From: Owenia fusiformis
Taxonomy: Eukaryota
DNA length: 64,000 nucleotides
Reading direction: 5' to 3'
Assembly (NCBI GenBank): GCA_903813345.2
Contig: CAIIXF020000001.1
Coordinates: forward strand, 5,084,001 to 5,148,000
Shown piece by piece: positions 3,047 through 51,200 of this stretch (the stretch's first letter is position 1; each line of letters starts with the position of its first letter). Under the pieces are notes generated by a model. It did not search any database and was not told where the DNA came from. It saw only the letters and a program-made list of their open reading frames with translations. A program made the position numbers and the translations under genes.

Positions 3047-3803
3047 TGTTATTTTCGCACTGTACCAAGGTGCTAAGAAATAATTATGACCTATGTCTAT
3101 ATATAGTTTATCCAATCCACAGATATGCTTAAACCAAGAGAGGTGTCATTGTATTTCAAAATGTTGAGTTGGGAATCTATGTAAGCAGGAACCCATACTC
3201 ATTTCTATTCCTTTTGAAACCAATGAACCCAAATCGCCTTGTTTTTTATAAAACAAATCAAGCTTAAGAATATATTGTCTGCTATTAGTTCATATCCTGT
3301 GTTCAGCTTGATTACTGCGTGAAAGATGTGATATTAAGAAGAAGTATATTGCACATGCTATGTACGTGACGTATATAATAATGTACTTATATGTTATGCA
3401 TGTGTCAGAGTTGATAATTAGAGATATTAATCGGCACTAGATCTTGTTCTAATTTGGTTCATACAAACACAGACAAACATATTGAAATAGATTCCGTTTA
3501 GTTGGAATCAAATATTGTAACGATAATGTCCTGATAAAGACGGTGTAGTCTTCAAAGTATATAAAAAGAGCAAAAATAGCAAAAATAGCCATTTTGACAA
3601 ATAAGTTGGTACTAAGACTTGATAGTTGTGTCCTTCTAATAGACACCTTGAAGTAAAACATTTTTCGGCGGTAAACCGACATAATATTTCCTAGCTGTGC
3701 TCTTTGATTCAATGGGGTGTTAAATAAAATTTAAAGATATTTGAGTGAAATCAAAATCAAGCCCGCGATTATTCGATTGTTCCATTATTAACTCCTCCTC
3801 TCG

Positions 3804-12723: not shown

Positions 12724-14857
12724 GTAAACAAATTAGAATATCCGACATGGTTCAGCCATGCATAATATCGAATTCGAAGGCAACCCTTTGGAATTAATAG
12801 CTAGTACTGATAAATTATATCAGATTTATCAACCTAATAGTTTTCTTTATAATAGCGTTTGACAGTGGGATGAGACTTTGTCGATGAACTTTTTTCTAAG
12901 ATGGTCAATCAATAGTAGTCCTTGCCATACGTTCTTTTATTGATAAAAGATTCCTGGTAAATTATACCGTCTACACAGGCTAATCAATGCCAAAGAGGTT
13001 TCTTGTTAAAACAATAGAAAGACATGCTGATGTTGTAATAAAGTAAGCGTTCGGCGTCTAACAGCTCCTACGGTCAATAATGATCTTTGGAATTGTTCAT
13101 TTTGTAATCTACTCCTTTTCACATGGTTCGAGATTTCTTTGGCCGGATATGCCATCATGGAGGATTAAGAAATTTGAATTGTCATGAAATATCCAAACTT
13201 TAAAATATCCGTGTCCTCATACATACATTTTACATTTGTCAATGTACCAAGACGTCGAATTTCAAAATCGAAAGTACGTTTAATTTGCAATCAAATGTTT
13301 GTTGTTATTGACCATGAACCAATAAGATATAATTGATCATTTCATTATTTGCAACCTTAATTTGTTTAAAAGTTTTCATCCTCTTGGCATATATTATTAC
13401 CATTAGGAATAAAAAATGCCCTGGATCCTTGACAATTAAGATCATTTATATATAATAGCCTCCCGAATTAAGCCCTTTGGGGAACTCCATAAGTGAAGAT
13501 TTCATTTTCTTCCAAATAAGTATCATCAATAAAATTGCGTAATGTTAAAAATATTAAGAAAAAAGTATTTATAAAAAGAAGTTATTCACCAGGAGGGATT
13601 TGATATGGGGAATATCACGAGGATGACATCAATATTTCCCGGGGGAAAATTTGAAAAATAAAAATGTTTCGAAAAATGAAAAATTTCAGAAAAAATGTTT
13701 GAAAATTAATAACTTTTTGAATTTACCCGGGATGATATCAATGTCATTCCTGATCCCTGATATCATCCCTCTAATCCTGATATCATCTCTGTCCCAAATC
13801 AGATGTAAATGCCTGAACAAGCATAAACCATCCCTTTTGCAATACTTGCTATTATATACCTGATATTGCTCTAAATATGGGATAAACACGTATATATTTA
13901 AGTCATTCGAATTATCACTGATTCTGTATTTGAGACACTGGCGTTTTCCCATTTTCAATTTAATTTATATTCAAACCATGGGACAAAAGGCGTAATTCGA
14001 AAAGAATTATCAAGAACCTATCTATATGCTATTATTAAATCACACTTTCAGAATTGTTTTTGTTGGGTCGTGTCTTTAATAGGATATAAAGAATTGATAA
14101 TTCAATTATTCATGCTATAATCATTCTACAGGGGGATGAACCAAACAGCCAACGTTGATGATGATATCCTCACTGCGTACAATACCCATTACTTAGTAAA
14201 TCTAACTAATGGAAAATCTCACAGAGGAACACTACTGATGGATTAACCATTCTCATTATTTTCATGTCTCATGAGTTTATGGTTTCCTCTCCATGTACTA
14301 TTGGATGTTTAACGGTTCATCTAAAGTTTTATTCATTCTCTGTTGCCTAGAGATCTAGTAATCTATACATCCATACTAATACGCAACAAGAGAATAATGA
14401 AATATATCCGTGTTGGTTTCACTATATAAAAGGGCAGGAAAATCGGAATCTCGGTAATGCATGCGCAACAGTACCAATTTTACATTCTATTGTAGATGGC
14501 CCTTGTACACATGGATGTATAAATGCAAATGTTATTTTCTTTTATGACGTGACTGAAAGTTTTTGTACATTTTGGTTTAAACATTATTTCTTCTTGTTTC
14601 AGACCATGTCCTTAAGATACGTGATCATTGCCATGATTAATTAATTATATTTAATTAAATCAAATGTAAATGCCTGAACAACCATAATCCATCCCTTTTG
14701 CAATAATTTTGATAACCATACAATGACCAGTCATAACTATTTAATTATCTATTTATTTTATATACGTATATGGACCAACCTGTACTATATTATATACGTA
14801 TATGGACCAACCTGTACTATATAACTATACTACTTATTCTATTTTGTTTCATTAAAG

Positions 14858-17800
14858 CCAAAGGGAGTTGTCTGGAATACGGTCAAAGAGGGTTCGAGTC
14901 ATCAAGCGGTTGTAACAACACAAACCTCTACGGATGATCCAGCAGAATACCCTGATGGGGACTCCTCTGATTTAGAGACCGAGGAGTCTTCCGAGGATGA
15001 ATCTGAGACGGACGACAGCGAAGAAGAGGAATCGTCGCAAGAGGAATCTTCCGAGTATGACTCATCCGTCGAGGAATCAGATTCTGAATCGAGATATTCA
15101 AGCGCCCAGAGTCACCAAAGTAAAAAGAGTACGGTCAGTAGTGTATCGTCCTATGCAACTGCTAAGAGACATTTGAGCGTATCGTCTGCTGACTCCTATA
15201 GTGCTGACATAGCCCCAGTAGCAAATGAGATACGTCACACAACGATACACCAAACTGTCGAGCATCATCATCATCATCATCACACACATAGTCCAAAGCA
15301 GCAACGTAGACATGAAGAGAGAGTTCATGTTTTGAGTGAGTCTCAAACTATAAAACATAGCCCAACCTTGAAAAGAAACAATAGCTCCAAGGCAGAATCT
15401 GTTAAATCGGGAACTAAAAGTGAAAATTCCAAGAAAATTGTGAAAGAGGAAATTGAAATGAAAAGAGTTAAAAAGAAATCCGCAAAAAAATCTGCAAAAC
15501 ATGTCAAGGAAATTATAGATCAAGAGGTGGATTCTAATACACATACCAATGTCGTAGTTAAGTCCTCTTCGAGTGCTAAAGAAAGAAAGAAAAACAAAGA
15601 ACGCAGTGTCAAACGAGTAAAGTCAGAAAATTTTATAAACATTGATAGTGAGGAGCAAACTACAAACGAGAGTATTACAAAAGACGCCTGGACAAAGAAC
15701 ACGGAAACAAAGGAAAGTTCCAAAGGAAATGGAAAAAAATCTGGTAAACGGAAAAGAACAGCTACAAAGCAAACAGAAGATCATGACAAGCAACAAGAAC
15801 TGTTCCACAAACGAAGTGACAAAGATGAACAGTTTGGAGACTCTAAAATCGTCATTCAGCATAATGAATCTGCTGAAATTGCTGAAAATGTACATTCCCG
15901 AAAACAAGAACATATCAATCAAAAGAACAGTGAAAATGACCCTCCAAAAAAGTACATTAAAGCCTGGAATGATGATGATGGCATGGAAACCCCGAATCAG
16001 CTAAAGGAAAAATATAAGAATAAGACAACTGCAAATACTAAAAACGAAACTAAATATAAATCCGTCAAAAATGAGAAAAGCAGAGATAGTCCTACCATTG
16101 ATTTAAAAGCTGACATTGACACCAAAAGAGAAAGTAAAACAAATACTAAGAAAACCAAGCAAAATGACAATGTTGGTATAAAAGCAGATATAGATGTCAA
16201 TACAGATATCAAAACTTCTGCTAAGAAATCGAAGAGACGTGACAGTGTTAAAGAAGACGTTGATGTCAAGACAGAAACTGTGGATTCTGCTAAGAAAACT
16301 AAGCAAATTGACAATGTTGATATTGACATTGCTGTTAAAAAGAACATTAAGAAATCTGCTAAGAAATCAAAACAAAAAGCCAATGTTGACAAAAAGCTAG
16401 ATATTGATATCAAAACAGACACTGAAACTTCTAAGAAAGCAAACCAAAATGAAAGTGTTGATATCAAGGCAGACATCGATGTCAAAACAGAAGCTAAAAC
16501 GTCTAAGGAAGCAAACCAAAATGAAAGTGTTGATATCAAGGCAAACATCGATGTCAAAACAGAAGCTAGAACGTCTAAGGAAGCAAACCAAAATGAAAGT
16601 GTTGATATCAAGGCAAACATCGATGTCAAAACAGAAGCTAGAACGTCTAAGGAAGCAAACCAAAATGAAAGTGTTGATATCAAGGCAAACGTTGATGTAA
16701 AACCAGAAGCTAAAACGTCTAAGAAAGCAAAACAAAATGAAAGTGTTGATATCAAGGCAGACATCGATGTCAAAACAGAAGCTAAAACGTCTAAGGAAGC
16801 AAACCAAAATGAAAGTGTTGATATCAAGGCAAACATCGATGTAAAGCCAGAAGCTAAAACGTCTAAGAAAGCAAACCAAAATGAAAGTGTTGATATTAAG
16901 GCAGACATCGATGTCAAATCAGAAGCTAAAACGTCTAATAAAGCAAACCAAAATGAAAGTGTTGATATCAAGGCAGACATCGATGTAAAAACAGAAGCTA
17001 AAACGTCTAAGAAAGCAAACCAAAGTGAAAGTGTTGATATCAAGGCAGACATCGATGTCAAAACAGAAACTAAAACGTCTAAGAAAGCAAACCAAAATGA
17101 AAGTGTTGATATCAAGGCAGACATCGATGTAAAAACAGAAGCTAAAACGTCTAAGAAAGCAAACCAAAATGAAAGTGTTGATATAAAAACAGACATTGAT
17201 AACAAAGCAGAGAAAGAAACTTTTAAGAAATCAAAACAAAAAGACAACGTTGATAAAAAGGCAGGCGTTGATGTCAAAGCAGACACTGAAACGTCTAAGA
17301 AAGCAAAACAAAATGAGAGTATTGATATAAAAGCGGGCATTGATGCCAAAGCTCCCGTTAAGAAATTAGAGCAAAATGATAATCTTGATAAAAAGGCAAA
17401 TATTGATTTCGAATCAGAAACGCAATCATCTGCTAAAAAGGTCAAACAAAATGCAGACAATAAAGCAGAGAATGAGATAGTAGCTCAGTCTACAACCCAA
17501 GCAGTGGACATAAGTATTGACAAAATAGCTGCTGTCGAAATCCAAAATGATAAAAATAACTCTAATGATACTACTGTTGAGATACAGGCCAGTATTACAG
17601 TTGAAAATGATGGGAACGAAGACCCTGATAATGAGCCTAGTAAGCCTGATTCAAACGTTGACTTAAAAAGTGGAAACATTGATGTTGATATATCAGCAGA
17701 TGTTGATGAGAACTCCGATGACGAAGCAACAAATGTGGAGGTAAATATGGTAAAAAATGATGATACAACATCGGACGATCTTTCTTCGACACATCTTGAT

Positions 17801-18628
17801 CCTGATGTCGATAGCAATGCTGGTGACTTTACAAACAAAGAGGATGCTACTCTGGAGTCAAAGAACAACATCCATATTGATGCAGATATCAATCAGAAGC
17901 CAGACATGGAAGATCCTATTCAAACTGCTGAAGGGGAAACACCAGAAATTGATGCAGTTGATCTTGCTGTTTCTGCAGACCTAGCTGACTCTGAATCTGG
18001 CAGTACATCCTCTTCGACAGAACCAAAAAGTAAACCACCCTCAGCAAAATCAGAAATCAAATCTACTTTAGCCACAGCCCCGTTAACAAATCAAAAAAGT
18101 AAACCTCCATCGGCAAAGGCAGAAAATAAACCCCCTTCCACAAAATTAGATAGGAAACCGCCCTCCGCAAAATCAGAAAGCAAGCCATCCTCAACTAAAC
18201 CAGAAATTAGCCCTGAGTCAGCCAAAACGAACGACAAACAAGATACTTCTGTTGAAACCCCAACAAATGAATCACCTCCGCCATCTAAGACGGACGCACC
18301 TCCTCCAAAAAGACCTAAAAAGGATCTGGTAAAAGATAGCAAATCAAAACGGGAACCAGTACAAGAGGACCCATCCATTGCAGCAACAATAAGGGCGTTG
18401 GACAAGCGGGCAGATCAAAATCTGCAATCAATACTAAACCCCAAAGAAGACGTTGATATCGTTAACAAGCTGCTGAAAGATGGCAAAATGTCGGATGATG
18501 ATATAGATGCGCTAGAAAAATCAATAACTCCTATACCAGATGAACCTGATATTGATGACGAAACTCTTGATAAACTAATTAATGGTGATTTCAGTAAAGA
18601 ATTAGATGACTTTTTACACCAGGTGTAA
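14858..18628 (+). CDS. Large terminal exon: disordered Ser/Glu/Asp/Lys-rich protein with a poly-His tract, 24-aa tandem repeats and a short helical C-terminus
   Basis: The frame of ORF 15173-18628 stays open back to 14825. A pyrimidine tract plus aag acceptor at 14857 is phase 0, matching the donor at 12723 (junction IPPQ|PKGVVWNTV). The ORF is uninterrupted for 3.77 kb in AT-rich DNA. Confidence 0.8.
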   Translation, partial: PKGVVWNTVKEGSSHQAVVTTQTSTDDPAEYPDGDSSDLETEESSEDESETDDSEEEESSQEESSEYDSSVEESDSESRYSSAQSHQSKKSTVSSVSSYATAKRHLSVSSADSYSADIAPVANEIRHTTIHQTVEHHHHHHHTHSPKQQRRHEERVHVLSESQTIKHSPTLKRNNSSKAESVKSGTKSENSKKIVKEEIEMKRVKKKSAKKSAKHVKEIIDQEVDSNTHTNVVVKSSSSAKERKKNKERSVKRVKSENFINIDSEEQTTNESITKDAWTKNTETKESSKGNGKKSGKRKRTATKQTEDHDKQQELFHKRSDKDEQFGDSKIVIQHNESAEIAENVHSRKQEHINQKNSENDPPKKYIKAWNDDDGMETPNQLKEKYKNKTTANTKNETKYKSVKNEKSRDSPTIDLKADIDTKRESKTNTKKTKQNDNVGIKADIDVNTDIKTSAKKSKRRDSVKEDVDVKTETVDSAKKTKQIDNVDIDIAVKKNIKKSAKKSKQKANVDKKLDIDIKTDTETSKKANQNESVDIKADIDVKTEAKTSKEANQNESVDIKANIDVKTEARTSKEANQNESVDIKANIDVKTEARTSKEANQNESVDIKANVDVKPEAKTSKKAKQNESVDIKADIDVKTEAKTSKEANQNESVDIKANIDVKPEAKTSKKANQNESVDIKADIDVKSEAKTSNKANQNESVDIKADIDVKTEAKTSKKANQSESVDIKADIDVKTETKTSKKANQNESVDIKADIDVKTEAKTSKKANQNESVDIKTDIDNKAEKETFKKSKQKDNVDKKAGVDVKADTETSKKAKQNESIDIKAGIDAKAPVKKLEQNDNLDKKANIDFESETQSSAKKVKQNADNKAENEIVAQSTTQAVDISIDKIAAVEIQNDKNNSNDTTVEIQASITVENDGNEDPDNEPSKPDSNVDLKSGNIDVDISADVDENSDDEATNVEVNMVKNDDTTSDDLSSTHLDPDVDSNAGDFTNKEDATLESKNNIHIDADINQKPDMEDPIQTAEGETPEIDAVDLAVSADLADSESGSTSSSTEPKSKPPSAKSEIKSTLATAPLTNQKSKPPSAKAENKPPSTKLDRKPPSAKSESKPSSTKPEISPESAKTNDKQDTSVETPTNESPPPSKTDAPPPKRPKKDLVKDSKSKREPVQEDPSIAATIRALDKRADQNLQSILNPKEDVDIVNKLLKDGKMSDDDIDALEKSITPIPDEPDIDDETLDKLINGDFSKELDDFLHQV
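16441..17190 (+). repeat. Coding tandem repeat, 72 bp / 24 aa (ANQNESVDIKADIDVKTEAKTSKK), 11 near-identical unit starts plus degenerate flanking units
   Basis: The unit start aaaccaaaatgaaagt recurs every 72 bp from 16441 to 17161; degenerate copies extend over about 16080-17460. Confidence 0.95.
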
Positions 18629-20581: not shown

Positions 20582-23521
20582 CTAAGAGCACAAGCTCAAG
20601 CTCATGTTGAGTAAAGAAATTTTATCACGCTCAACATACCTTTTCATCATATGTAGCTCTCTACACCTCACAGGAGTAGTTTTATCAATGCAAATGAAAT
20701 CATTCAGCACTGAGTTAGATTGTAAGTCAGATATGAGCTCCTTTGGTAGCTCAACTAATGTGGAATTGTTGATTTGTGTTTTCACAATATACTTGGTTTT
20801 GCTATTTCTAAGCATAAGGAGTGATTTTGTTTCTGGAAACTGTGTGGCCATGGACAGAATAATGAGCAGATATTGATTGTCAGATTTTGTTTTTGGTAAA
20901 GGACCAACACAGTCAATAAGAACCTTACTGAATGGTTCATCAAATGCAGGTATAGGGTGTAAAGGAGCAGTTGGAATTTTCTGGTTAGGTTTCCCTACCA
21001 TTTGACATGTATGACAAGACCTACAATACTCTTGGACATCTTGTTTTAATTTGGGCCAAAAGAAATGATTGAGTATTTTATGGTATGTTTTAGTTACTCC
21101 TAAATGACCTGCCATGGGAGAATCGTGAGCTAGACTCAAGATTTCCTTATGATATGATTTGGGGACAACAATTTGATGTACAATTGCCCAATCGTCTTCA
21201 GGGGAAGCTTCAGGAGGTCTCCACTTTCGCATTAATATGCCATCCTTTTTGTAGAAACAAACAGGGACCTTGACAGCTTCATCATTAGTAAGACATCTTT
21301 TATGAAGATCAATGAGTGATGGATCATGCTCTTGTTCATAAATTAACATGGGTTTAGAATGAGGATCATTTTTCAAAGAATCACTATCAGAAATAGAGGA
21401 TGAAACCTCAGAACAAGGAGGGGATGAAACCTCATGAACACTAGCAGAAGAAGATGAAACTTCATCAGAACTAGCAAGAGCGGGCGAAACCGCATTAAAA
21501 TAGTGATCCTGCTCAGAAGGTGAATCACCTCTGGCAATAGGCTTTTTCAATGAAGAATTTGCCTCAATAGATGACTGCTTGGCTTGAACAGAAGGCTGTT
21601 TCAATGAAGAATTTGCCTTTAAAATAGGATAAGGATCATCTTTAACAAGTGGTGAGTGACATTCATCATCAAACAAGGAGCTTAAAAACCCACTATCAAA
21701 GTCATCTCCCACAGACGAATCCCCGCTATTAGCTAACTTTTTAGCCATAGCCCTAGTAACAGCACAAGCAGGATATATATCAGAGTCCTCTTGGACAGAA
21801 TCCTCAATAGAACAAGGCTGATCAGAAACAATGGGGTCTAATGATACCTTACCCCCAGCTAAATCATTGCCTAAAAGCAATGCGACTCCTTCAACAGGAA
21901 GTTGTGGCCTAACACCAACAATAACTGGCCCTTTGACTAACTCTGATGTGATATGAATACGATGGAGGGGAACTTTAGTAAAACCTAATTCAATGCCTTG
22001 CATCAAAATATGGGTACCTGTGAATGACTCCTCAGATAAAGGAAGGACACCTTCTAACAACAAAGTCTGTGATGCACCCGTGTCTCTAAGAATCTTAACA
22101 GGCTTTGAATTGGTATCATCACTTGAAAGTGACACAAATCCTTCCGACATGAAAGGCTTATAATCCTCCATAATATCACTATGAGTAGATTTCTCAGTAT
22201 GAGTATATGAATCCCAAACAATGGGCTTTCTTGAAATGGGAACTGTAGCACAACCATTTGAATGAGCAGAACCAGACATCTCTCTTCTATTCTTTATCCT
22301 ATAGCATTCAGATATAAGATGACCAGGCTTTTTACAATAATTACAGGTGACATTTGATTTTGGACCTGAAGAATTTGATTGATCTGATTTTGAGCTAAAA
22401 CTCTGTGATGAATTAGACTGGTCTTTTGCTTTGTTTGATGCATTTGATGATGAGGACTGATTTGATTTTGAATCATATGAAGGTTTGTTACCTTGATAAC
22501 CTCTAAAGTTAGGATTGCCCTTGATAAAACTACCCTTATGAGTAAGAGCATAATCATCAGACAGGGTGGCAGCTTGACTTAAAGTTTCTACCTTGTGTTC
22601 ATCTAAATAAGTTCTAATGTGATACTGAACACAGTTTTTAAATTGTTCTATTAGCATAAGCTCTCTGAGCTTTTTAAACTCTTCAGATACATCTTTAGAG
22701 ATAAGCCACCTGTCAAAAAGCTGCTCTTGCTCTCGAGCAAACTCAACATGGGTTTGGTCACTCTGTTTGTGGGCATTTCTAAATTTTTGTCTGTAAGCTT
22801 CTGGCACTAGTTCATAAGCTTTAAGAATTGCATTTTTAATAAGGTCATAATCAGAGCATACTTCTGCTGAGAGAGAGGCAAATATTTCACTTGCTTTACC
22901 AATGAATACACTCTGAAGCATAACTGGCCATGCAGATTTAGGCCAGTCTAGGCTCTGAGCGACTTTTTCAAAGTGTGTAAAGTATTTATCAACATTTTTC
23001 TCCTGAAATTTAGGTACAAATTTGAGAAATTTTGAAGCGTCAAACCTATTTTCAAAATGTTGATGCATAGTAGCATGTTCATCAGTTTTGGATTGAGCTT
23101 CTATCTCAAGACGTTTCAATTCAATTTCTCTTTGAATTTCTTGTTCTCTTAATTTTATTTCTTTTTCACTTTGAATTTCTAACTCTTTTTCTCTCAATTC
23201 TCTTTCATTTTGCAATTCTTTCTCTCTCATTTCATTTTGTAATTTGAGTTCAAGTTCTCTCATTTGTAATTGCTGTTGAAATTCAGTAGGATCAACATGC
23301 TGGGTTGGCTCTACAGTAAGCTTTAATGCTTCTTCTGGTAATATTTCTTCCGCCACCAAATATGGCACCAGAATATTTTTTATTGCACCTTTTCGGTATG
23401 AAGTTTTTACTGCCAAACCAACATGTTTTGCTAGTGCCAGAAGTTCAGTTTTCTTTAAACTGTCAAATTCCTCCAAAGAGGGCGATCCTAAAAATGTCTC
23501 AACCTCAAAACTCATTTTCAA
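20582..23521 (-). CDS. Gag (SCAN-like capsid, CCHC knuckle), aspartic protease and truncated integrase polyprotein
   Basis: YELVPEAYRQKFR...LRELMLIEQF capsid region, CNYCKKPGHLISEC knuckle, ILRDTGAS protease, HDSPMAGH...CRSCHTC integrase zinc finger and IDCVGPLP core start; no YxDD RT motif. Confidence 0.92.
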   Translation of the reverse strand: MKMSFEVETFLGSPSLEEFDSLKKTELLALAKHVGLAVKTSYRKGAIKNILVPYLVAEEILPEEALKLTVEPTQHVDPTEFQQQLQMRELELKLQNEMREKELQNERELREKELEIQSEKEIKLREQEIQREIELKRLEIEAQSKTDEHATMHQHFENRFDASKFLKFVPKFQEKNVDKYFTHFEKVAQSLDWPKSAWPVMLQSVFIGKASEIFASLSAEVCSDYDLIKNAILKAYELVPEAYRQKFRNAHKQSDQTHVEFAREQEQLFDRWLISKDVSEEFKKLRELMLIEQFKNCVQYHIRTYLDEHKVETLSQAATLSDDYALTHKGSFIKGNPNFRGYQGNKPSYDSKSNQSSSSNASNKAKDQSNSSQSFSSKSDQSNSSGPKSNVTCNYCKKPGHLISECYRIKNRREMSGSAHSNGCATVPISRKPIVWDSYTHTEKSTHSDIMEDYKPFMSEGFVSLSSDDTNSKPVKILRDTGASQTLLLEGVLPLSEESFTGTHILMQGIELGFTKVPLHRIHITSELVKGPVIVGVRPQLPVEGVALLLGNDLAGGKVSLDPIVSDQPCSIEDSVQEDSDIYPACAVTRAMAKKLANSGDSSVGDDFDSGFLSSLFDDECHSPLVKDDPYPILKANSSLKQPSVQAKQSSIEANSSLKKPIARGDSPSEQDHYFNAVSPALASSDEVSSSSASVHEVSSPPCSEVSSSISDSDSLKNDPHSKPMLIYEQEHDPSLIDLHKRCLTNDEAVKVPVCFYKKDGILMRKWRPPEASPEDDWAIVHQIVVPKSYHKEILSLAHDSPMAGHLGVTKTYHKILNHFFWPKLKQDVQEYCRSCHTCQMVGKPNQKIPTAPLHPIPAFDEPFSKVLIDCVGPLPKTKSDNQYLLIILSMATQFPETKSLLMLRNSKTKYIVKTQINNSTLVELPKELISDLQSNSVLNDFICIDKTTPVRCRELHMMKRYVERDKISLLNMSLSLCS

Positions 23522-24472: not shown

Positions 24473-26380
24473 CTAAGATTTTAATCGGTAGCATCGGGTC
24501 TATGTCTTGCATAATTGTATTCATAACATGCAAATAACAAAGCAATTGAAATTACAATTCAAAGCTTTACAATGAAAATGATATAACTTCCAGTATGATT
24601 AAAAAAGTTGCTGAGGTGAGCAAACAAATAGAATAATAACAAAATTTTCATTGCATTCCATTTTCTTATTTATATATTACATACATTTGAATGTGGTACC
24701 TCTACAACATTTTAACACATGAACTCGAATTGCAGTAAAAATGAATTTACTTTGAATAAAATTGCAAAGAAAATATATTATAGTTTTATGCTCTTATATA
24801 TGTGTTTTGTTGTGAACAGTGACATACATGCATGTACAAATACTGTAACTAGCTGCCTATTCAAATTGGTCCATATCCTGAGAATTGAACAAATTATTCA
24901 TAGATTATGCTCATAAATCAGCCTTGGTATTTACGTTCTTTTCATGGTGAGGAACATATGCAAAAGAGCAAGATGATTCGTCCTCATTGATTTTGATTGT
25001 AAAAGTCTAGTCAACGGCGACGCCGACTTTACTTACATGTAATTCTATCGTATTCCATTCATTGAGTCGTTTTTCATAAATAATGCCCTAACACGGTGTC
25101 CACTCTAGAAAGCCATTCCCCTCAAGGTCATATACACGGGGATCAATAACTTTTGAATCATTAATCAACAAATAGTGGCCTTCTATCTCAGATAATAATT
25201 TGGAGTCCTGACATAAAACTTGTAGAAACCCTTGTAGAAATATAATACATAGTGCCCTGCGCCCAGAGTCTAGTTTTAAACCTATAACGAAGCAGCTCTC
25301 TTTTAAGAAGCGAAGTCGAACGAATACAAATGATAAGTACATAGACTACCAACAAGTATTGTAACCTCTATTGATTTGCTTTAATTGTTAAACATATAAT
25401 AACATAAACGTGGAAATATATTTAATGTTATGATTATTAGTATCTTACTTTAATTCCCTATGGCCAAACAGTGAGTGAGGAGTACGAACAAAATGATCAT
25501 TTAAAAAAACAAAAGAACGTTTTCATCTTTAATATGCTTAAGGATTTTTCATTGAGGCCACCGTCTGTTGCTTGGGTGGGTTGAGCCATCTGCCCAGAGA
25601 CAATAATTGTGAAACTGAAAAGGTTGGTTCCTCCGTTGATGTCTGAATAGGTTGGTTCCTCCATTGATGTGATAATTGTGATACTGGGAGTTTTACCGTA
25701 TTTCAGCGAGCCATCGCCAGGGACAATAGTAAGGTTGTCGAATGGCAGGAATAGGGTCCAGTATGGTCGCGTTGTAGCTAACTGAGGAAAAAATCAAAGC
25801 CATTCGAGGCCATTCAGGAAATGTTCCTGTTCTTGATTTAACGTGTATTTGTTTTGTTATTAGAATTAATGATATAATGAATAATGTAATTGTTAAAATG
25901 AATAAGATTATAGCACCTGGTTCAAGTTGTATTAAACTTACTATAGTTCCAGCGGATAATATATTCCCTCGAAGAAATGGTTCGATTGGGCAAATGCTAG
26001 ATACTTTCATTACAGGGATGTGTATTACATAGTATTCAGAGGGGTATGATTTTTATTAGACAAATTAGTGAACGAGACATCTATATTTGCTCTAATATTG
26101 TTCGCGTTCTACACAGACAAAAATAGAGATGAAACAAACTAACGTGAACGTGTACAATTTTGGTTTTGTATTCGCACATTCGAAACTGCTTCCCCTGAAA
26201 AAGCCGAACAAAAAATTAAACATTGTTTTCTATTTTCTTTGTAAAATTAGTGAATTTTCTTTGGTATAACAAAACATATCAGTTAAAATTTAATGTGAAG
26301 TTCAATTATAGTGGGGGGAATTTGCTGGAAAATATTTCAGTTGGTGATACAAGCAAATTTAATGGCTTAATCTGTTATTT

Positions 26381-26988
26381 ATGTTATTAGGAAAAATTCC
26401 ATCCCTGTGATCGATAAAACCGAACACTATTTCAAGAAAAATTCAAGATGGCCGCCATATAGGCATAATTTGGTAAAAATAACACTCTAGATTCATATAT
26501 AGAGACAAATATGGTTTAAAAATAATATTGATACAGTAGTAAAGCATGTTGCTTACATCTAGAAATAAGTCACATTCATTAATGATTTGAATTTGGACAA
26601 AATGACTTTATATAGGGATTCTACAAGGTTCTATTTTGGGAGAGCTCGTATTTTGCATCAACTGAAGTCTGTACTTGTAAGTCCTGACTTTTTACATCTC
26701 TTATTATGCTATTAGGAAAAGTTCCATCCCTGTGATCGATAAAATGAAACATTATTTCAAGAAAAATCCAAAATGGCCGCCATATACGCATAATTTGGTA
26801 CAAATAACACTGTAGGTTCATATATAGAGATAAATGTGGTTTATATAATAATACTGTTTCGGTAGTAAAGCATGTTGTTTACATCTAGAAATACAGTCAC
26901 ATTAATTAATGATTTGAACAAAATGACTTTATATAGGGATTTTACAAGGTTCTATTTTGGGAGGGCTCTTATTTTGCAACAACTGAAG
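26381..26988. repeat. Tandem duplication of a ~325-bp unit (2 copies)
   Basis: tattaggaaaa.ttccatccctgtgatcgataaaa... starts near 26381 and again near 26706. Confidence 0.85.
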
Positions 26989-27163
26989 TGAATGAACCTG
27001 TTTTCTTGAATAAGATAATATTTCACACATCATTCAATCTTATATTTCAAGTAAGTTAAATTATTGTCTTACAAGTATAAAATAGCCTTTGAAGGAGTTC
27101 CACATGGTTCCTTTTTACTCTGTTATAATCACAATCTCATATATACTGTCAAAATGTTAATCA

Positions 27164-27627
27164 CTTATACAGAATTGCATGTGCAATTGCACAAGTCTGT
27201 ACATGTAAGTCCTGAACATTGTACATTGTACAAGATCTTGGCAGGTTTTGTATGACTGTGTCTGGGTTGTCAACAGTGGGGTAACTGTTTCATTATTGAC
27301 CCATCCCAGTAGTCGTAAAGGCCAGGTGGTGAAGAATTTAGCATTTGTCACCAATATGCTGTTCCAAGGCATGTGAGTAGGTTGAATTCTTTCGATTGAT
27401 CTTCCTTTTTTGCAAAACGAGTACTTTCTGGATGTATTTATATCAATTGTTTCGCTTGTTCTGTCAGATAACTATTTTCTGTGATATTTGACAGATCTTC
27501 CATATATGTTGATGAATGCCTCTGCCACACTAGTAAACCTTTCCCACAGTTTCCAGGCCTGGAAATGTCCGTGGAAAGCTGAGGTTTTGTCACTTTCTGT
27601 GAATGAGTGGAAAGCTGGGACAGCCAT
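27164..27627 (-). pseudogene. Frameshifted remnant of a transposon-associated protein with a PAFH.FTGCD-type (H3TH/5'-nuclease-like) motif and a C-terminal CXC Cys cluster
   Basis: Translated fragments in order: VPAFHSFTESDKTSAFHG..QAWKLW, NTSRKYSFCKKGRSIEE, GWVNNETVTPLLTT..KTCQDLVQC, GLTCTDLCNC. The family assignment is from memory of the motifs. Confidence 0.65.
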
Positions 27628-27831
27628 GCCTTATCTTTTCACCAGCTTTTGTTTGGAACGAAATTTAGCTTTTCATGTTGTAAGTTCAATGTTATTTTCT
27701 TTTGTGTTCCATATATGGAAAACACTCATTTCTAACTAGCAAATTCCTACCCAACTTTCGAATTAACTTCCCTCCAATCGTTTCCTTCCATGACATGACA
27801 TACCACATATTTGATGTTCACAATTAAAGGA

Positions 27832-29029
27832 CGCGGTGTCCAACCCAAACGCTCTTACATGCAAGATTGAGCATTTCATTACTGAAACTAAACAAAGAAA
27901 CGCTCTGGAGTATGGCCAGTGGGAATGATGAGTCATCTGACAATTTCCCCAATAATGGGAATAAGAAGTATGTGTTACTTATTTTAAGTATACCATTTGA
28001 TGGCTATGATATATTGTACTTGGATGACTGTTGACGTTTGAAGCAATTAGGAAGAGCTGAATGAAGCAGTATAGTTTGTCGAGACATGCGACTAGTTGAG
28101 TTGAACATCAGAGTATATTTTGGTCAAATTCCAAACCTTGATCACACAATACATTATCGTAATCGTGATTTGATAACCTAAAATTAAGTCTTAAAAATGA
28201 TGACATTCTCATATTCAAGAAATGCTGTGATCTGGTTAACACAGTGAACTGGAAACGCTGCGGTACTAGGCTAGATATGTTTAGGAATTAGCTCAACTTT
28301 CCTTTTCAAGAAGAGAAAGAAAAGATCTATTGTATCCCTTGGCATCAAAAGAAGAAAGATTAATTCACAGATAATCTTTTTGTTTTTGTCAATAGTTTTG
28401 TTTTATAGCACACATTAGGCAAAGCATCATCTAATGTAGGCTTAGTTGATTTGTTGCACGTGTAGCACCACCAGGTTGAGAAGTTTCAATTTACTTAACA
28501 AGTACAAAAGGTTTTTTAGAGATAGATTCCATTCCGAACGTTTCTCTAATAATCTGAAAATGATATCAAAACAAAATAGTAAGAACGTTTCAAAAATTTT
28601 GTCCAAAATCGACAGAAACAATCGAGGAAAACAAGCAATTTCTCAAAAACAAGTAATGGATTTGGACTTTCAGCAAATGAGAATAAACAAGTTTGTGATC
28701 TACTACTTTGACAGAAAGATGGACAATTTCATATAAATACTAGTTTAATTCGTAATTTGTGGTCAATACGTCAACTTCAGATTTGTTCTATCTACACTAT
28801 GGAGCTTTGATCAAGCAAATAACAGTTTACCATCAGAAGTTGAATAAATAAGATCTCTGCTCAGAGTATTGTTCATCAAATGGTACATAATATTTCACCA
28901 TAACATATGATATGAAAGAGAAACTAGTGAAACAATACTTACGGTCACAGTGGGATCTTCATTAGCCCCGTTTCCGCATGAATGAAACATTCCTTTGTGC
29001 ATGTAAGAGCGTTTGAGTTGGACACTGTG
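27832..29029. mobile_element. Nested non-autonomous element with 32-bp TIRs and a CACTGTG right end (Transib/CMC-like)
   Basis: cgcggtgtccaacccaaacgctcttacatgca vs tgcatgtaagagcgtttgagttggacactgtg (29/32 complementary); flanks aagga / aaaga. Confidence 0.6.
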
Positions 29030-30799
29030 AAAGAATGCATAAGATACATTTATGGGATGAGTTAATATTTTACACTTAATCAAAATTCTACAAATAATGG
29101 TAGATTTTTGTTACATTAAATTTTGCAAATTCTTACTCAAATTTCAATTCACCTTCCTGCTGGGTTTTTCATTCCTTCTTACTGAAGAGTCGTGGAAAAC
29201 CACATATTTCATATTCATACTCAATAATGCATAGAATACATTGATGGACTTATTAATATTTTTTACCTCAACCAAAATTCAATGAATAATTGGATTTCCT
29301 TTTATTGGTCATGATGTCGCTGTAATAGTCTGTAATTGTGAATACATGGTAAATGTCTGCACTAGATAAACCATTTATTTGAGAAAATCCTTCAATTCTT
29401 AAGGCTACGGTCATTTATACAAACTAATTTGATATACAGCAGAGCATTAAAATCTAAAATTTAAGAGCAATCCTACTCATTATACTTAATTCATAGGAGT
29501 AGGGTTATACAAACTTATAAATGAACAAAATAAGAGGGGGACCAGAAATGAACCTTGCTTTACTCCCATATAATTATTTATTTTGACTTAAGCTCATGAC
29601 ATGTATTATGTGGTGTCCCTATAAGTGCATTTAGTCCTGAAAACACAATTTAAACTTTATATTACAGCTGTATTTGCCAAATCAGAGCTAAATATATTAT
29701 CCGAGCTATAGTGTGTCGGCCATCTTGGATTTTGGCGGGAAAAAGTAAAAAAATCCATCGATCACAGAGACAGATTTTTTCAAAAAGGTTTGAAGTAGTA
29801 GAAAAGCAAAAGTTTATACTTGTATCACCATCTGAAATATTCTGCCAAATATAGGGGTAAATTCCCCCCACTATTAGTGTTTTTTATGTAAAATAGCGTG
29901 CTCCCCTAAAGTGGATGATGATAACCCGTGATTATAATTGTTGGTACATTGCTATAGTGTTCCGAGCCTTGTTGCTTTCAACAATTGAACAAGCTTTTCT
30001 TATTGCGTTGTGATACGCACTTTCTCATGAGCGACATACACTAACCATGCTTTTAGAAAGTGAAGGCTGTCATACAATAAATGAAAAGTTGGGCTTCATT
30101 TTTGATATAAATCATTTGAGTTTTGGCTCGGATAGCCTTGATTCTCTCTGTTCTGTTTCGATTAACATTCATTCCATGCAGAGAGACGATGTTAAGGCAT
30201 TTTAACTTTTTGTACCTGTAACTTTTATATTACTATTTTCTTTTACCTTATATCATTGTATATGTTTATGTTTCTTTATTTCCTCCGTTTTATTGGAGAG
30301 CAAAACAATTTATACATGCATATCACATTACAAACATATATTACAGAAAAGTAAAGGGTTATTAATATTTACATATTTACAAGTTAAATGACTCTAAATA
30401 CATTTTATCATTACAATTCAAGCGTACCTATTTGAAATACATATTTATATTGTAAAATGTATTTGCACATTCGATAACGAACATTTCATAAATGGTGTCA
30501 TTGGCTACATCAAAATCTATTCTGCTACCCTGTGTATCATATGTTTCTCTTTGACACCACTTATTATAGATTACCCTCTGCATTCGTTCAACTTCATTTC
30601 TTAAAAGAGACCTTCGTCTTCAGCAGTTTGTAACTAAAATCTGCACGCAGTGTAATTATAGATCATGTGTCACTTTTTAATTTGGTGACAAAAAATAAGG
30701 ACGTCGTGACAACTGAAAATCGGAAATTAAAGGGTTAATTGATTTGGCCTCCATTGTTAAAATGAAAGACAGATCACTGACATTGTATGTGGATCCTAC

Positions 30800-30833
30800 C
30801 ATGGACCTATATCCTCGAGGATATAGGTCCATG
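30800..30833. repeat. Perfect 34-bp palindrome flanked by a 7-bp direct repeat
   Basis: ATCCTAC|CATGGACCTATATCCTC GAGGATATAGGTCCATG|ATCCTAC. Confidence 0.9.
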
Positions 30834-31006: not shown

Positions 31007-32311
31007 CGAGGGAAGATCCAAAAGTTTCCGGCCTAACATAGTTCTAGTTGATGGATTTTCAAAATGATAGTGTCATTTTTCAATGTAGTCTCCCTGTACT
31101 TCGATGCACTTGGCCCATCTTCTTGGCAGCATCTCAAGTCCAGTTCTGAAGAAATCAGGAGCATTACCCTCCAACCACTGGTTAACAGCTATCTTGACCT
31201 CATCATCAACATCAAAGCGTTGCCCTCGTAGAGATTTTTTGAGTTTCCCAAATAGGTAATAGTCACTGGGTGCTTGATCTGGAGAATAGGGCGCATTCGG
31301 TAATAATTCCAGATGGCATTCTTCTGCTGCATCACGAGCAACTTGGCTTGTGTGAACAGGTGCATTGTCCTGTTGATGCAAAACTCCAAGACGGACTTTG
31401 TGTGGCCTGGTTTCATCAAGTTTAGCTTTTAAAGTACGCAACAAAGCAGCATAATATTCTCCATTCATTGTAGTACATCTTGGAAGGTAGTCTACTAAGA
31501 TAGGACCTTCACAGTCCCAGAAAATGGTAGCCATCATCTTTTTGTTGGATGGGGTGGTGCGAAACTTCTTTGGGGGTGGGGACCCCATATGTTTCCATTG
31601 CATTGACTCATGTTTGGTTGAAGGCTCAAAATGACGCATCCATGTTTCATCACAAGTGACTATTCTCTCCATAAAACCTTGTGGATCAGTGTTATACATG
31701 TCCAAAAGCTCTCTTGCAACAGCAACTCGTTTTGTTTTCATGTCCTCTGTGAGCATGCGTGGCACCCATCTTGAGCTTAACTTTTGCATGTGTAAATCTT
31801 CATGAATTATTCTACAAACGGTGCCATATGATAATCCAGTTTCTTCTACAAGTTCACGTATAGATTTCCGCCTATCTTCCAATATTGTTTGATGTAGAAG
31901 ATCAACATTTCTATCTGAAGTGACATCTTTAGGTCTTCCAGAACGTGGTGCATCATCAATTGATTCCCGTCCGCGTTTAAATTTAACCACCCAAAATTTT
32001 ACAGTAGAATAGGAGGGAGCACCTTCCCCATACACATCCTAAATCTATCGTAGATTTCCTGCCCTCCATTTTCTTCTTGATATAGAAACTTTATCACAGC
32101 TCTATATTCAGTTTTCTCCATTGTGATCACTGATGTGCAGCCACTGTGACCTGACCTCATTATGAATATTCTCAAAATGAGGCTGTGACCCCTAGAGATT
32201 AATCATATGCATAAATTATGTTCATACATAAGCAACATTTGAACTGTGAAGAATGGTTGCTCTCAGACATCGGGAACTATGTTAGGCCGGAAACTTTTGG
32301 ATCTTCCCTCG
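31007..32311 (-). mobile_element. Full-length mariner transposon (1305 bp)
   Basis: Perfect 38-bp TIRs cgagggaagatccaaaagtttccggcctaacatagttc (31007-31044 and 32274-32311); TA target duplication on both sides. Confidence 0.96.
31073..32121 (-). pseudogene. Mariner DD34D transposase with a single 1-bp frameshift near 32036-32040
   Basis: WVPRML, TCDETW, QDNAPVH and YSPDQAPSDY motifs, with 34 residues between the last two Asp. The true start MEKTEYRAVIKFL at 32121 is out of frame with the main ORF (span 1049 bp, 1 short of 350 codons). Confidence 0.88.
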
Positions 32312-32710
32312 TAGCAACTACAATGACAAAGGCCGCCTTCTTACGCAATGGATAGTGATCATCGTATGAAAGCCGCTAATATTGAATCATTCCAACGAGC
32401 TACATGTATGTTCAAGAATCTAGATGTTAGACTGGTTTATTTGTCATACGTCTTTAGCGAGTGATGAATGTTTTATTTGGAGAGGGCTCAAAGTCATGTT
32501 AACAAGCAATACATTTCCAATCATTTCCAATGGATTGAATATAACTGCTGGTATTAGAAGATGGTTCGGATAAGGAAATATACCGGCTACTAATGCAGCA
32601 TTACAAAATTACTAGGAAGATTCGCAAACCCGGAGGTGGTTTCGCCAGAACGGCCTCTTGAACAAATAATTACTAGCATTAATGAATATGTTCAAAGGTA
32701 ATAATTTTCC

Positions 32711-33727
32711 ATGACGCTTGTTGAAACAAGTGATAAGCATGTATGCTTAGATGCTGAAAGAACTAACACATCTACCCCAGAAAGAAATCTCGATATTTTG
32801 AACATTAAACCAATGGATGCAGGGCTGATGAAAGAGAAACCAGAGAACTGCAAGGTCAACAAATTATTCGTGGATGACATTGTTGTAACATCTTCGAACA
32901 ATGATTCCGTTGTTGAATGTGAAAATATTCGAAGTGATCCTGTGTTGAAATTTAGCAATGATGAAGGAATAGAAGTAGACACTCAGCTGATTTCCGAAGA
33001 TAAAACTAATAAAAAGCCTATTGAAAACGATTGGGGTAAATGCAAAGACGATATCATAGATATTAAAAATAAACCAGGGGAAAACATTGTTGATCAACAA
33101 AATAATGATTCCGACATCGGCATCAAATTCGAATCTGGGCGACACAAGAAAACCATCACTGATGTGAATAATATCAAGCAAAGTGCAGAAACCGACGAAC
33201 GCATGGAAGATGATGCCGATTCTGATGATATGTCTGAACACGAATTTGATAACATGATAAAGGAACAAAACAATTTTCATAAAGCTAATTCATCTACGGC
33301 AATAAGTGAGGACAATAATGATGTCAATGCTTGGTTTCTCGAGAAAAGCGATGACAATTCTTTTAACGCAAACATTTGGAAACTGGATTCGGAAAACAAT
33401 ACAAATAAGGATCAAAAGACACTTACTATAGACGAATATGCTGATATGCTTCTGACCGATCCGGATTTGGATAAGGCTGATATTGTTGTGATAAGGCAAA
33501 AACACGAAAATAACGACACGTTGACATCGCAAACCGTCACCGTGAATGAACAAATTGAAAAGACAGATTCAACAGACATAGTCGATAGACTTCTTAACAC
33601 AAATCATATAACAGAAGAAGATCTAAATTGCCTTGTTGGATCTATATCCATGACAAGTCAAGCCCAAACGGATGCAACATTGACGGACGCCATCGACGAT
33701 CTCGAGTCGCTCCTAACTGAAGAATAG
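32711..33727 (+). CDS. Acidic, Asp/Asn-rich disordered protein (338 aa ORF, possibly a terminal exon); probable distant paralogue of the 14858-18628 exon
   Basis: 1-kb open frame with coding-like composition; the C-terminal DIVDRLL...DLNCLVGSIS aligns with DIVNKLL...DIDALEKSIT. Confidence 0.6.
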   Translation: MTLVETSDKHVCLDAERTNTSTPERNLDILNIKPMDAGLMKEKPENCKVNKLFVDDIVVTSSNNDSVVECENIRSDPVLKFSNDEGIEVDTQLISEDKTNKKPIENDWGKCKDDIIDIKNKPGENIVDQQNNDSDIGIKFESGRHKKTITDVNNIKQSAETDERMEDDADSDDMSEHEFDNMIKEQNNFHKANSSTAISEDNNDVNAWFLEKSDDNSFNANIWKLDSENNTNKDQKTLTIDEYADMLLTDPDLDKADIVVIRQKHENNDTLTSQTVTVNEQIEKTDSTDIVDRLLNTNHITEEDLNCLVGSISMTSQAQTDATLTDAIDDLESLLTEE

Positions 33728-48200: not shown

Positions 48201-51200
48201 ATTCCAATTTTGATGAAAACGGATTGTTTCATTTTAGACTTAATTTAGTAAGACAGAAATATGTTGTTTTGCATGTATACAGGGTGTCCTGAAAGTATGC
48301 CCCCCCCCCCCCTAAGCAGACATATACCAGTGTCGTCATAGTATGTGTCATATATCATTTTAAAGCTTATCCAAAGTTACATTGATTCACCAAGTATCAT
48401 GGTTCAACTCTCAAATGTGAAAAAATTACAGGCATTTCAAAATTTAGTGTTTGGTCAAAATAAAGTTCAATTTTACGCCAAATCAATAATCAATGTGTCC
48501 TCCTGGGCCATCTTAACAGCAGCAATTCTTTTCGAGTCGGATGGATATTGAGTTGGAAAAAGAGAATGGTGAGGGTAGAAACTCTAAGGAAACTCTTCTA
48601 AAGTGCCTTAACAGGTTTTAAGAGTCATATCTGAAAATAATTGCTGCTGTCAACATGGCCAAGGGGGGACTCATTGACTAGTAATGTGGTGTAAAATTGA
48701 ACTTTATTTTGACAAAACACTAACTTTTAAAATGACTGTAACTTTTTCCCATTTGGGAGTTAAACCATGATATTTGGAAAATCAATGTAACTTTGAATAA
48801 GCTTTAAAATGATATATGGCACATCCTATGTGGACACCGGAATATGTCTGCCTAGGGGGGCCGCATACTTTCGGGACACCCTGTAATAGTACTATAAGCA
48901 AATACCCCCAACCTTTGGTCAATGTTAAATTGATCATCAAAGTGTAGATTGAATGTTGATAATTATCATGAATATTTACCCCTTCTATAACAATGTCAAT
49001 ATTTCATTAATATGGTATTAATTCTTCGATACAATACCTGGTCTGTACTAAATGTTCCGTTCAGTGCTCCGAAAGCAAAATTTTTGTGAGTTTTTTTGTT
49101 CAAATCGTAATATAGACCTAAATTCAGGTACATGTATTATATCAAGTAATAAATAACTTAGGGCTAGGCACAAAAGCTTTTAAGCCCATTTCAAACCCAG
49201 AAATCATTTTTGCTTAGCGCTGTGGTATTTATTTGTTGATATAATACCTGCTCATCGGTCTATACTTCTTAAATATATTCAAAATAATATGCAACATACC
49301 TTATCATCATCTATTGTTTTATTTATGTAGTAGTCCCTTTGGAGATCCAGTCCTCCCTGTTCAACCTGGAGAATAGTATAAAACATGATGAAAATATGTA
49401 TAAGGGTTATGAACTGGGAGGTTTTGGATATAAGGTTCCTAAATGAGATGTTGATATGTCCCAAGGGATAATCTTCATCAAAATCAACTGTACATAACTG
49501 ATACTATATCATACTTGAATGGGGGTTACCATCTTTCAAAAATAACAAGATAATGTTTTTGTCCTTTTATGATATAACATGTACTTATATTTAACATTCT
49601 CTTTTATTCAATGCATTGAAACCGTGTTGTAAATACAAAATATCACATCATTTTGAGTGATATCATTTTAATCGCCGAGTTGATATCAAATATCAACACG
49701 AGTGAGCGAAGCGAATGAGTGTTGATATTTGATATCTACGAGGCGATAAAATGATATCACGAGAAATTATGTGATATTGGGTTTATCCCATGACTACAAT
49801 CACTTTGTGATGTTCTGATCCAATTTCCAGGACACTGGCAGACCTATTTTCTCAAAAGAGAATAAATTATCTGACCAAATTTCCAACAATATTGTGGCGC
49901 GAAATGCAAATGTGATATCACACGAATATGCGTGAGATAAACGATATCACACGCATATGAGTTTGATAAACGATTTTCTGGAAAATTTCACACGGATTTC
50001 AATAATATCAGAAATATCAATAGCTGTTATTGTACAGATAACACATTAATCGTGGGATAATATTAAATATTGTCTCATCCAACAATTCATTGCTAAGAGC
50101 ATTAAATGTCATTTGTAAATGTCAGACAAATATCATGGAGTTCTATCAATCAGAATTAAATTCATTAATGATAACACATAACCAATAATATAATTGCACA
50201 TAACAAATAATCATTGCTTTCTAGCATGTTAAGGAATATAAATTCCATCTTCTACAAAGTCTAAGGGAATTGCCATATGACGCTAAATAATCACAAGACA
50301 AATATTTGTAAATACGTACATAAATATTTAAAAAATAATGAAAATGAAACAGAAAAATTCCATACAATTTAATCTAAATTGTTCTTTTACATTTTTCAAG
50401 ATTTAATTGATGCTCACAACATTTTTTCGGAACAATTTTGGACCAAATCAACATAATATATATTTTTGCAGGATAATAACTAATAATTAATCCCAAAAAC
50501 ATGTATAGAAGTTCTAATGAAAAAAAACTGTAAAATCTGCTTCTGAGCATAACTTGAGTCTTAAATTTCCTTTGACATTCTAGTAGAATATGAAATGCAG
50601 GATGAACAACATTAAAGAAATCTACCTGTAAAATATTTCTGGAGGAATTTTTATCATCGCCTCCCACCCCTCCTGCGAACAATGTTGCATGGTTAAATCT
50701 GTGGATCTTCGTTAAGAGATCTTGAAAGTTCCAGTTTGATGGATCAAATGGACCAGCTCTGTCGCTTATGCTCCAACCTCCAAGCTTGTCTCTTATAAAA
50801 TTTAATAGAGGTTGGGCACCAAGTTCTTGGATAGTCTCATTTTTGTCAAGGCAGGATTCATAGTACATTTTTGCTTTACGTTCTGCTTCACATTTCATAT
50901 CAGACATAGGTTTTTCTGAAAGTACACGCATTGGTTTTCCATAAGATATGATCTTTGTCTGGAGAAATTCAAGTTGCAATTTGCACATACATGAGTAAAA
51001 TTGGCTAAAGTGAGGAATGTCCATAACAGTAAAATCTGTCTAACCAAAACACTACTTGGACCAGCTACAAGTGTTCAGATTGGCATTTTTCATAGAAGTC
51101 TATGACAAATTACAAGGCTGTTCTATTACCTACTATGAATAACATTAGAAATCACCTATTTCATTTTTCATGACGAGTTGGTTCTGCTTCCATAGAACTC

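Follow-up and report, generated by a model that had tools for sequence, protein, structure and literature searches.

Academ is a superfamily of DNA transposons defined by an XPG label, a cysteine finger and a protein of about 1500 amino acids (aa); its founding descriptions are reportedly those of Kapitonov & Jurka in 2010 and of Kojima in 2020. Here we describe a transposable element at positions 26309-29873 of a 64,000-nucleotide (nt) stretch of the Owenia fusiformis genome (contig CAIIXF020000001.1, positions 5,084,001 to 5,148,000; the whole stretch is referred to below as the window). According to the accessible parts of two papers, Academ produces a target-site duplication (TSD) of 3 bp (PMC5199201), and two types are distinguished, AcademX with a 3-4-bp TSD and a nuclease and AcademH with a 9-10-bp TSD and a helicase (PMC10045372). 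The available text of a preprint describes the P element as having internal binding sites and two different ends that are paired "similar to the 12-23 rule", and as leaving 3' extensions (bioRxiv 10.1101/2024.03.22.586318).

Its termini, the length of its TSD, its nuclease domain and a subterminal motif common to published Academ-1 consensuses mark the window element as an Academ of the AcademX type. It shares with AcademX (DNA/Academ-1) the TAG termini, the 3-bp TSD, the combination of DDE domain and nuclease in intact relatives and the offsets of the subterminal motif; the window copy differs in being non-autonomous, in keeping only a C-terminal remnant of the gene, and in carrying a nested Transib-like element and a duplicated subterminal unit. 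AcademH belongs to the same superfamily, and the window family is set apart from it by its 3-bp TSD and 5'-nuclease; Pfam found no helicase in P0019 and P0107, two full-length proteins. We conclude, with a probability of about 0.93, that the element is a non-autonomous, internally deleted Academ of the AcademX type, which is bounded by TAG…CTA, makes a 3-bp TSD, has spread widely and is likely mobilised by an Academ transposase, acting in trans, that would pair a short with a long end. The original prediction, made from the letters of the window alone, had pointed to a poorly characterised transposon group; the element maps instead to a described superfamily. In itself it is an ordinary dead derivative and a new non-autonomous member of that superfamily, and its main interest lies in the asymmetry of its ends.

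Termini and target-site duplication

The element had been read as flanked by TA and bounded by perfect 13-bp terminal inverted repeats (TIRs). The 13-mer is present at 26311-26323, with its reverse complement at 29859-29871, but the true perfect repeat is 15 bp long (TAGTGGGGGGAATTT) and includes the TA, with TTA directly outside both arms. The element (5'-TAG…CTA-3') is thus 3565 bp long, two bases wider on each side than in the first reading, and lies between two copies of the TSD TTA, at 26306-26308 adjoining the TAG terminus and at 29874-29876 adjoining the CTA terminus (both plus strand).

The 15-mer was found 84 times in the 500-Mb genome, 42 times in each orientation; a reversed control gave 1 and 0 occurrences. 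It forms 33 inward-facing pairs, the window pair included, and the other 32 (1.9-6.2 kb long) were fetched. Identical 3-bp flanks were observed in 29 of these 32 copies, representing 15 different triplets, and a 4-bp match in none. When the pairing was shuffled, a mean of 3.4 copies had matching 3-bp flanks, with a maximum of 11 in 10,000 shuffles. Because the variable 3-bp flanks match in nearly all copies and 4-bp flanks in none, the TA seen outside both 13-mers is internal to the element, whose TSD is 3 bp long. In addition, raw reads from another sample end exactly at the TAG of the terminus of a related family. A full-length sibling on another contig is identical at 3533 of 3563 aligned bases (99%) and has its own TSD, TAT, so the window derivative has moved recently as a unit; a second sibling is truncated and 98.5-99.5% identical. 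The element is non-coding and mobile, and its ends define it as a unit. A search for an empty site with the left flank matched only short repeats and returned no empty paralogue.

Two other assignments of the ends were rejected. TA as the TSD, the criterion for Tc1/mariner, is ruled out by the variable 3-bp duplication outside it. PIF/Harbinger and Zator have a TWA-restricted 3-bp TSD and termini starting with G; the termini here start with TAG, and TAA/TTA account for only 11 of the 29 TSDs. The corrected bounds avert the false description of a new TA-flanked group.

Each end consists of an outer and an inner conserved block. At the short end, on the gene-3' side, the outer 15-bp TIR block (26309-26323, plus strand) is followed by an inner block at 26332-26353 (plus strand), 24 nt in from the terminus, which carries the GTGATACAAG core. 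At the long end, on the gene-5' side, the outer block occupies 29859-29873 (minus strand) and the inner block 29819-29840 (minus strand), 34 nt in from the terminus and hence 10 nt deeper. The inner blocks, with their GTGATACAAG core, are likely binding sites of the transposase. Further inverted blocks at 26391-26457 (plus strand) pair with 29714-29781, and a CAAGATGGCCGCC motif, also common near published Academ-1 ends, lies at 26444-26456. The subterminal inverted blocks reported earlier were recovered as three pairs, 26331-26353/29819-29841 (96% identical), 26391-26415/29757-29781 and 26438-26457/29714-29733.

Published Academ-1 ends were compared in a bivalve repeat library (PMC10294476, supplement 24), of which 354,229 of about 2.49 million characters were covered, giving the first ~400 letters of each sequence with the 3' ends cut. 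Within that portion, 11 of the 12 curated DNA/Academ-1 families shown start with TAG, and all seven GTGATACAAG matches lie in Academ-1 ends, at offsets of 35, 36, 36, 36, 36, 46 and 46 (hand count). In the window element, GTGATACAAG is found at 36 on one end and at 46 on the other. The window TIR itself was not found in the covered part of the library.

Long and short ends

The long end of the window element corresponds to the short end with 10 nt inserted between outer and inner blocks. In its family the inner blocks lie at offsets of 24/34 in 40 of 42 copies and at 24/33 in one. Comparable values were obtained for other Academ families, namely 39/49 in L104-L106, 36/45 in L108, a 10-nt gap in L110, L111, L113 and L114, and 24/34 in L102, a nearly whole element described below (hand count, nested insertion discounted). 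Across the six Academ families examined, the short-end and long-end offsets differ in each case by 9-10 nt, and the short end is on the gene-3' side in each family that is not a fold-back. Both the ~10-nt offset and this polarity are kept in families with unrelated spacer sequences, and the two registers (35-36 and 46) are also seen among the bivalve Academ-1 ends in the covered part of the library.

The sixth family is a fold-back, composed of two gene-3' halves head to head. About 45 copies with 3-bp TSDs were noted (L158-L174 and L176, e.g. G000:C8:12892321-12895689). Their arms are mostly 90-100% identical over about the first 700 nt (as in L160; L171 is more variable), except for the outer 50 nt. 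One long and one short end were present in 18 of 18 copies, 17 of them with a 3-bp TSD. Genome-wide, 42 long+short pairs, no short+short pair and no long+long pair were counted, with eight unpaired. The family comprises two subtypes with a mutual identity of about 89-90%, and both keep long and short ends. A reading of these copies with symmetric ends and an apparent TATA TSD was rejected; the true ends are 39/49 nt further out.

The fold-back family offers a natural experiment for a rule resembling the 12/23 rule, as it is built of two gene-3' halves and yet has one long tip. We consider it slightly better than an even bet that Academ transposases need one short and one long end, one helical turn apart, across families and genomes. 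A competing explanation retains the Academ assignment and takes the difference between the ends as inherited history or a weak preference, not as a pairing requirement; we regard this as possible, at clearly less than even odds. Families do inherit their ends from a founder, so the copies are not independent and represent about 6-7 founding events, and the long tip of the fold-back could have survived, without selection, through a template switch within the inner block that both ends share. History or weak preference fits less well with an offset and polarity that stay constant across families with unrelated spacers, with the recurrence of two registers in the published bivalve families (covered part), and with the two diverged fold-back subtypes, both of which keep one long and one short end while the rest of both arms comes from the gene-3' half.

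In the mechanism proposed for the window element, an Academ transposase supplied in trans would bind the inner blocks and bring together a short end and a long end that differ by 10 nt, or one helical turn. It would then transfer the CTA-3' ends to target DNA at positions staggered by 3 nt, and repair of the stagger would yield the TSD. The fused 5'-nuclease would most likely trim or cut the non-transferred strand. RAG1/Transib and the 12/23 rule offer a likeness in their bipartite ends, with spacers about one helical turn apart. The P element, whose transposase is the closest fold match, is likewise a precedent for pairing unlike ends. Should the long/short rule prove functional, Academ would join P elements and RAG in enforced asymmetric end pairing. 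No published description of unequal Academ ends or of Academ dimers was found, in a search that excluded the founding Academ papers and Repbase Reports and is therefore weak.

Three fold-back loci are head-to-tail dimers (junctions at L178:3891-3892, L179:3865-3866 and L180:3542-3543), and L181 is probably a fourth. At each junction the long end runs into the short end through a single TA common to both, and no TSD lies between them; outside each dimer there is a 3-bp TSD (CAT, AAA and CCT). Within a dimer the units do not differ (100% identity), and units of different dimers are 94-96% identical. A bolder and less secure proposal is that the dimers are traces of an excision intermediate whose ends had 2-nt 3'-TA overhangs, or else of a circle junction, and that the fused FEN1/XPG-like nuclease possibly took part in making it; either structure would give TA-sharing junctions. 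Alternatively, the dimers may be an artefact of assembly duplication, from which complete identity of the units would also be expected, or the junction may be a polymorphism. Of 41 raw reads taken from a different sample, none spanned the junction, a weak result as the set contained no reads from the long-end side; the junction was likewise seen in none of the listed contig pieces from two more runs. No TA-sharing dimer junction was found in the window's own family.

Gene remnant and the parent protein

The broken 3' end of an Academ gene lies at 27165-27651 on the minus strand, with the end of the nuclease domain and, in another frame, the cysteine tail. The motifs PAFHSFTESD, FCKKGRS, GW and CTDLCNC, which had been noted in the original prediction, are indeed found here in two frames of the minus strand. 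The remnant of ~490 bp represents the last ~190 of ~1520 residues, the rest of the gene having been lost in the window copy, and it adjoins the short end in the same position as the gene 3' end in intact elements. At 27220-27651 (minus strand) it matches positions 1321-1490 (independent E-value 7e-14) of a 1521-position profile, which was made from 53 full-length proteins (1450-1620 aa) among 121 proteins; it also matches the C-terminus of long open reading frames (ORFs) in the same genome (E 2e-11). The nuclease/CXC gene regarded earlier as the cargo of the element is thus reduced to this remnant, and much of the interior is a nested element (27832-29029, see below).

The 88-aa remnant of a sister copy gave 138 matches in the genome, two of them with long frames, L101 (955 aa) and L102 (870 + 592 aa). 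L102 is a 7570-bp TAG…CTA element (L102:1112-8681, G000:C7) with 25-bp TIRs and the TSD AAT. It covers profile positions 11-1519, with one frameshift and a GT-AG intron whose position is that of the intron in L101. Its short end holds a nested insertion of ~530 bp with CAG…CTG ends, and in L101 a repeat-rich insertion of ~1.45 kb with short inverted ends (L101:2290-3750) breaks the 5' part of the long Academ gene. The proposed link of the protein family to transposon ends was confirmed. Among 20 loci selected by protein, the gene is enclosed by TAG…CTA ends and a 3-bp TSD in eight, one (L119) is in the window family and one has ends with a mismatched TSD; convincing ends were not found at the remaining 10. 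A word-indexed homolog search found nothing with the 88-aa remnant and recovered homologues with the 955-aa ORF. At E<=0.001, 27,829 representative proteins match, some of them labelled "tesmin/CXC" or hypothetical. The best-scoring members of this unnamed set are Academ-type transposases without a passing Pfam model.

From folds of relatives, three parts are predicted for the parent protein of ~1520 aa, first an RNase H-like D-D-E domain carrying a large helical insertion, next a 5'-nuclease of the FEN1/XPG type and last a cysteine tail. For L102, the C-terminal 416 aa gave a predicted fold with a predicted local distance difference test (pLDDT) score of 94. The top 17 VIA matches of this nuclease model are all FEN1/XPG/EXO1/XRN/T5 5'-nucleases (Z 9.5-13.4; the next match has Z 7.5), in agreement with Foldseek. 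As in that superfamily, the acidic motifs DG, EExD, DxD and GxD are present, conserved in 71/73 to 81/81 alignment rows; the Academ-type nuclease differs in being fused to a transposase, and its activity is predicted from the model. Nine cysteines, at least 85% conserved, follow the acidic nuclease motifs, and the cysteine pattern is matched by 46 of the 53 full-length homologues. The fold match and the conserved motifs of the relatives bear out the earlier assignment of the window motifs to a 5'-nuclease (H2TH/H3TH-type) domain with a cysteine-rich tail. In the window copy only the GxD/H2TH end of the nuclease survives, broken, and the "TESD" of its motif is a decayed TGCD.

The middle of the protein was modelled with a 528-aa homologue (P0238; pLDDT 93). 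Its best VIA match is the transposase of the Drosophila P element (PDB 6p5a; Z 13.3, root-mean-square deviation 4.8, 337 aligned residues), followed by Hermes (Z 8.5), ISCth4 (8.3) and RAG/RAGL (7.3-7.8), and RAG1, Transib and integrases were also matched. Academ shares with RAG1/Transib a DDE fold with a helical insertion (Z 6.2-7.8). The likeness to the P element has its limits, as P transposase is not known to carry a fused 5'-nuclease and the P element has a TSD of 8 bp. D75, D258 and E478 are conserved in 88/89, 87/88 and 89/89 rows, and from their place in the fold they probably form the catalytic triad. Since intact relatives carry the DDE fold upstream of the nuclease, the family has a DDE transposase that was deleted in the window copy; the view of a family with no recognisable DDE transposase is not upheld.

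Several observations weigh against the conclusion that the element is an internally deleted Academ moved in trans. The assignment was set by published descriptions and the subterminal motif rather than by protein alignment to named Repbase or Dfam Academ entries, and the folds are those predicted for the relatives L102 and P0238, not for the window copy, whose remnant is only ~30-35% identical to the L101/L102 proteins. Foldseek gave no match to the DDE model at E<=0.001 (best transposase E 0.22). In Pfam scans of the remnant and the long homologues no family passed, with sub-threshold matches to tesmin/CXC (TCR, E 0.086) and DUF6589 (E 0.0019). No autonomous copy with the window family's own ends is present in the assembly, the longer copies being long through insertions; the driver may belong to a cross-acting family, may lie in sequence missing from the assembly or may have been lost. 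PDB sequence searches with the remnant and the long homologues gave no passing match, and a weak HflX match was disregarded. The blank Pfam scans are explained by the lack of a Pfam model for the Academ RNase H-like domain, as stated in the available part of a published account (PMC5751038).

We think it very improbable that the element belongs to an undescribed TA-targeting group with Tc1/mariner-like ends, moved by a 5'-nuclease/CXC protein without a DDE enzyme. Such a group could be imagined from the TA outside both 13-bp arms, from the window copy, which keeps only nuclease and cysteine motifs, and from the failure of Pfam to find a transposase in the homologues. It is contradicted by the variable 3-bp duplication outside TA in 29 of 32 copies, by the reads of another sample that break at the TAG of a related end, by the DDE fold upstream in intact relatives and by the match to published Academ-1 ends. 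With the nearly whole L102 and many young end pairs in one genome, the mechanism proposed for an Academ derivative and the role of the fused 5'-nuclease become testable.

Subfamilies, nested elements and window surroundings

The 32 other paired copies fall into two subfamilies. Subfamily A (12 copies) has the interior of the window element and is 93-100% identical across the last 900 bp. Subfamily B (20 copies, among L038-L062) has the same ends and an unrelated interior without the Academ remnant; Pfam gave no match to this interior, which resembles a decayed fragment of a non-long-terminal-repeat (non-LTR) reverse transcriptase. Subfamily B does indicate that the ends can carry foreign filler, but a remnant captured from host DNA (Pack-type cargo), or two ends from independent insertions, as also considered earlier, can be dismissed as scarcely credible given the 33 inward pairs with matching TSDs, the 99% identical full-length sibling elsewhere and a remnant that adjoins the short end exactly as the gene 3' end does in intact elements. 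The longer window-family copies L031, L033 and L037 bear secondary insertions (read by eye), with a mariner-like ORF in L031 and ORFs resembling long interspersed nuclear elements in L033 and L037.

The duplicated subterminal unit described earlier was confirmed at 26370-26989 (plus strand), as two copies of ~300 bp (26370-26668 and 26696-26989) with a spacing of 325 nt and 88% identity. A scrap of cysteine-tail coding sequence is contained in the joint between them. The 325-nt duplication is a subfamily trait, shared by most copies of subfamily A.

At 27832-29029 lies the nested TIR element, which is 1198 bp long and non-coding, has ends of the CAC…GTG type and is flanked by a 5-bp TSD (AAGGA/AAAGA, one mismatch). 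By its ends it is assigned to a Transib-like type, for which CAC termini and a 5-bp TSD are the signature in the accessible part of the published description (PMC1131882); these features fit the nested element and not its Academ host. The 5-bp TSD is perfect in 12 of 16 free copies retrieved and imperfect in two; in the other two a single end was found. The flanks of the nested element are the same in the window copy and in 12 of 12 subfamily-A copies, so it was inserted once, in the subfamily founder. An abundant non-coding Transib-like element of ~1.29 kb, with CACGGTG ends and a 5-bp TSD, was noted in at least 30 copies (L142-L157).

An inverted pair of 80 nt (74% identical; 25257-25336 and 30571-30650) encloses the whole Academ element, and is perhaps an older TIR element in which it landed. 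A perfect hairpin with 17-bp arms lies to the right of the element at 30800-30833. Open frames without a Pfam match were observed at 14825-18628 (plus strand; 1267 aa, A-rich) and 32705-33727 (plus strand; 340 aa). A 979-aa ORF at 20582-23521 (minus strand) has Pfam SCAN and integrase zinc-binding (H2C2) domains and is LTR-retrotransposon-like, and a 321-aa ORF at 31073-32038 (minus strand) is of the mariner transposase type (PF01359, HTH_48). A 221-aa frame at 50374-51039 (minus strand) matches Peptidase_M13_N and is likely a host exon.

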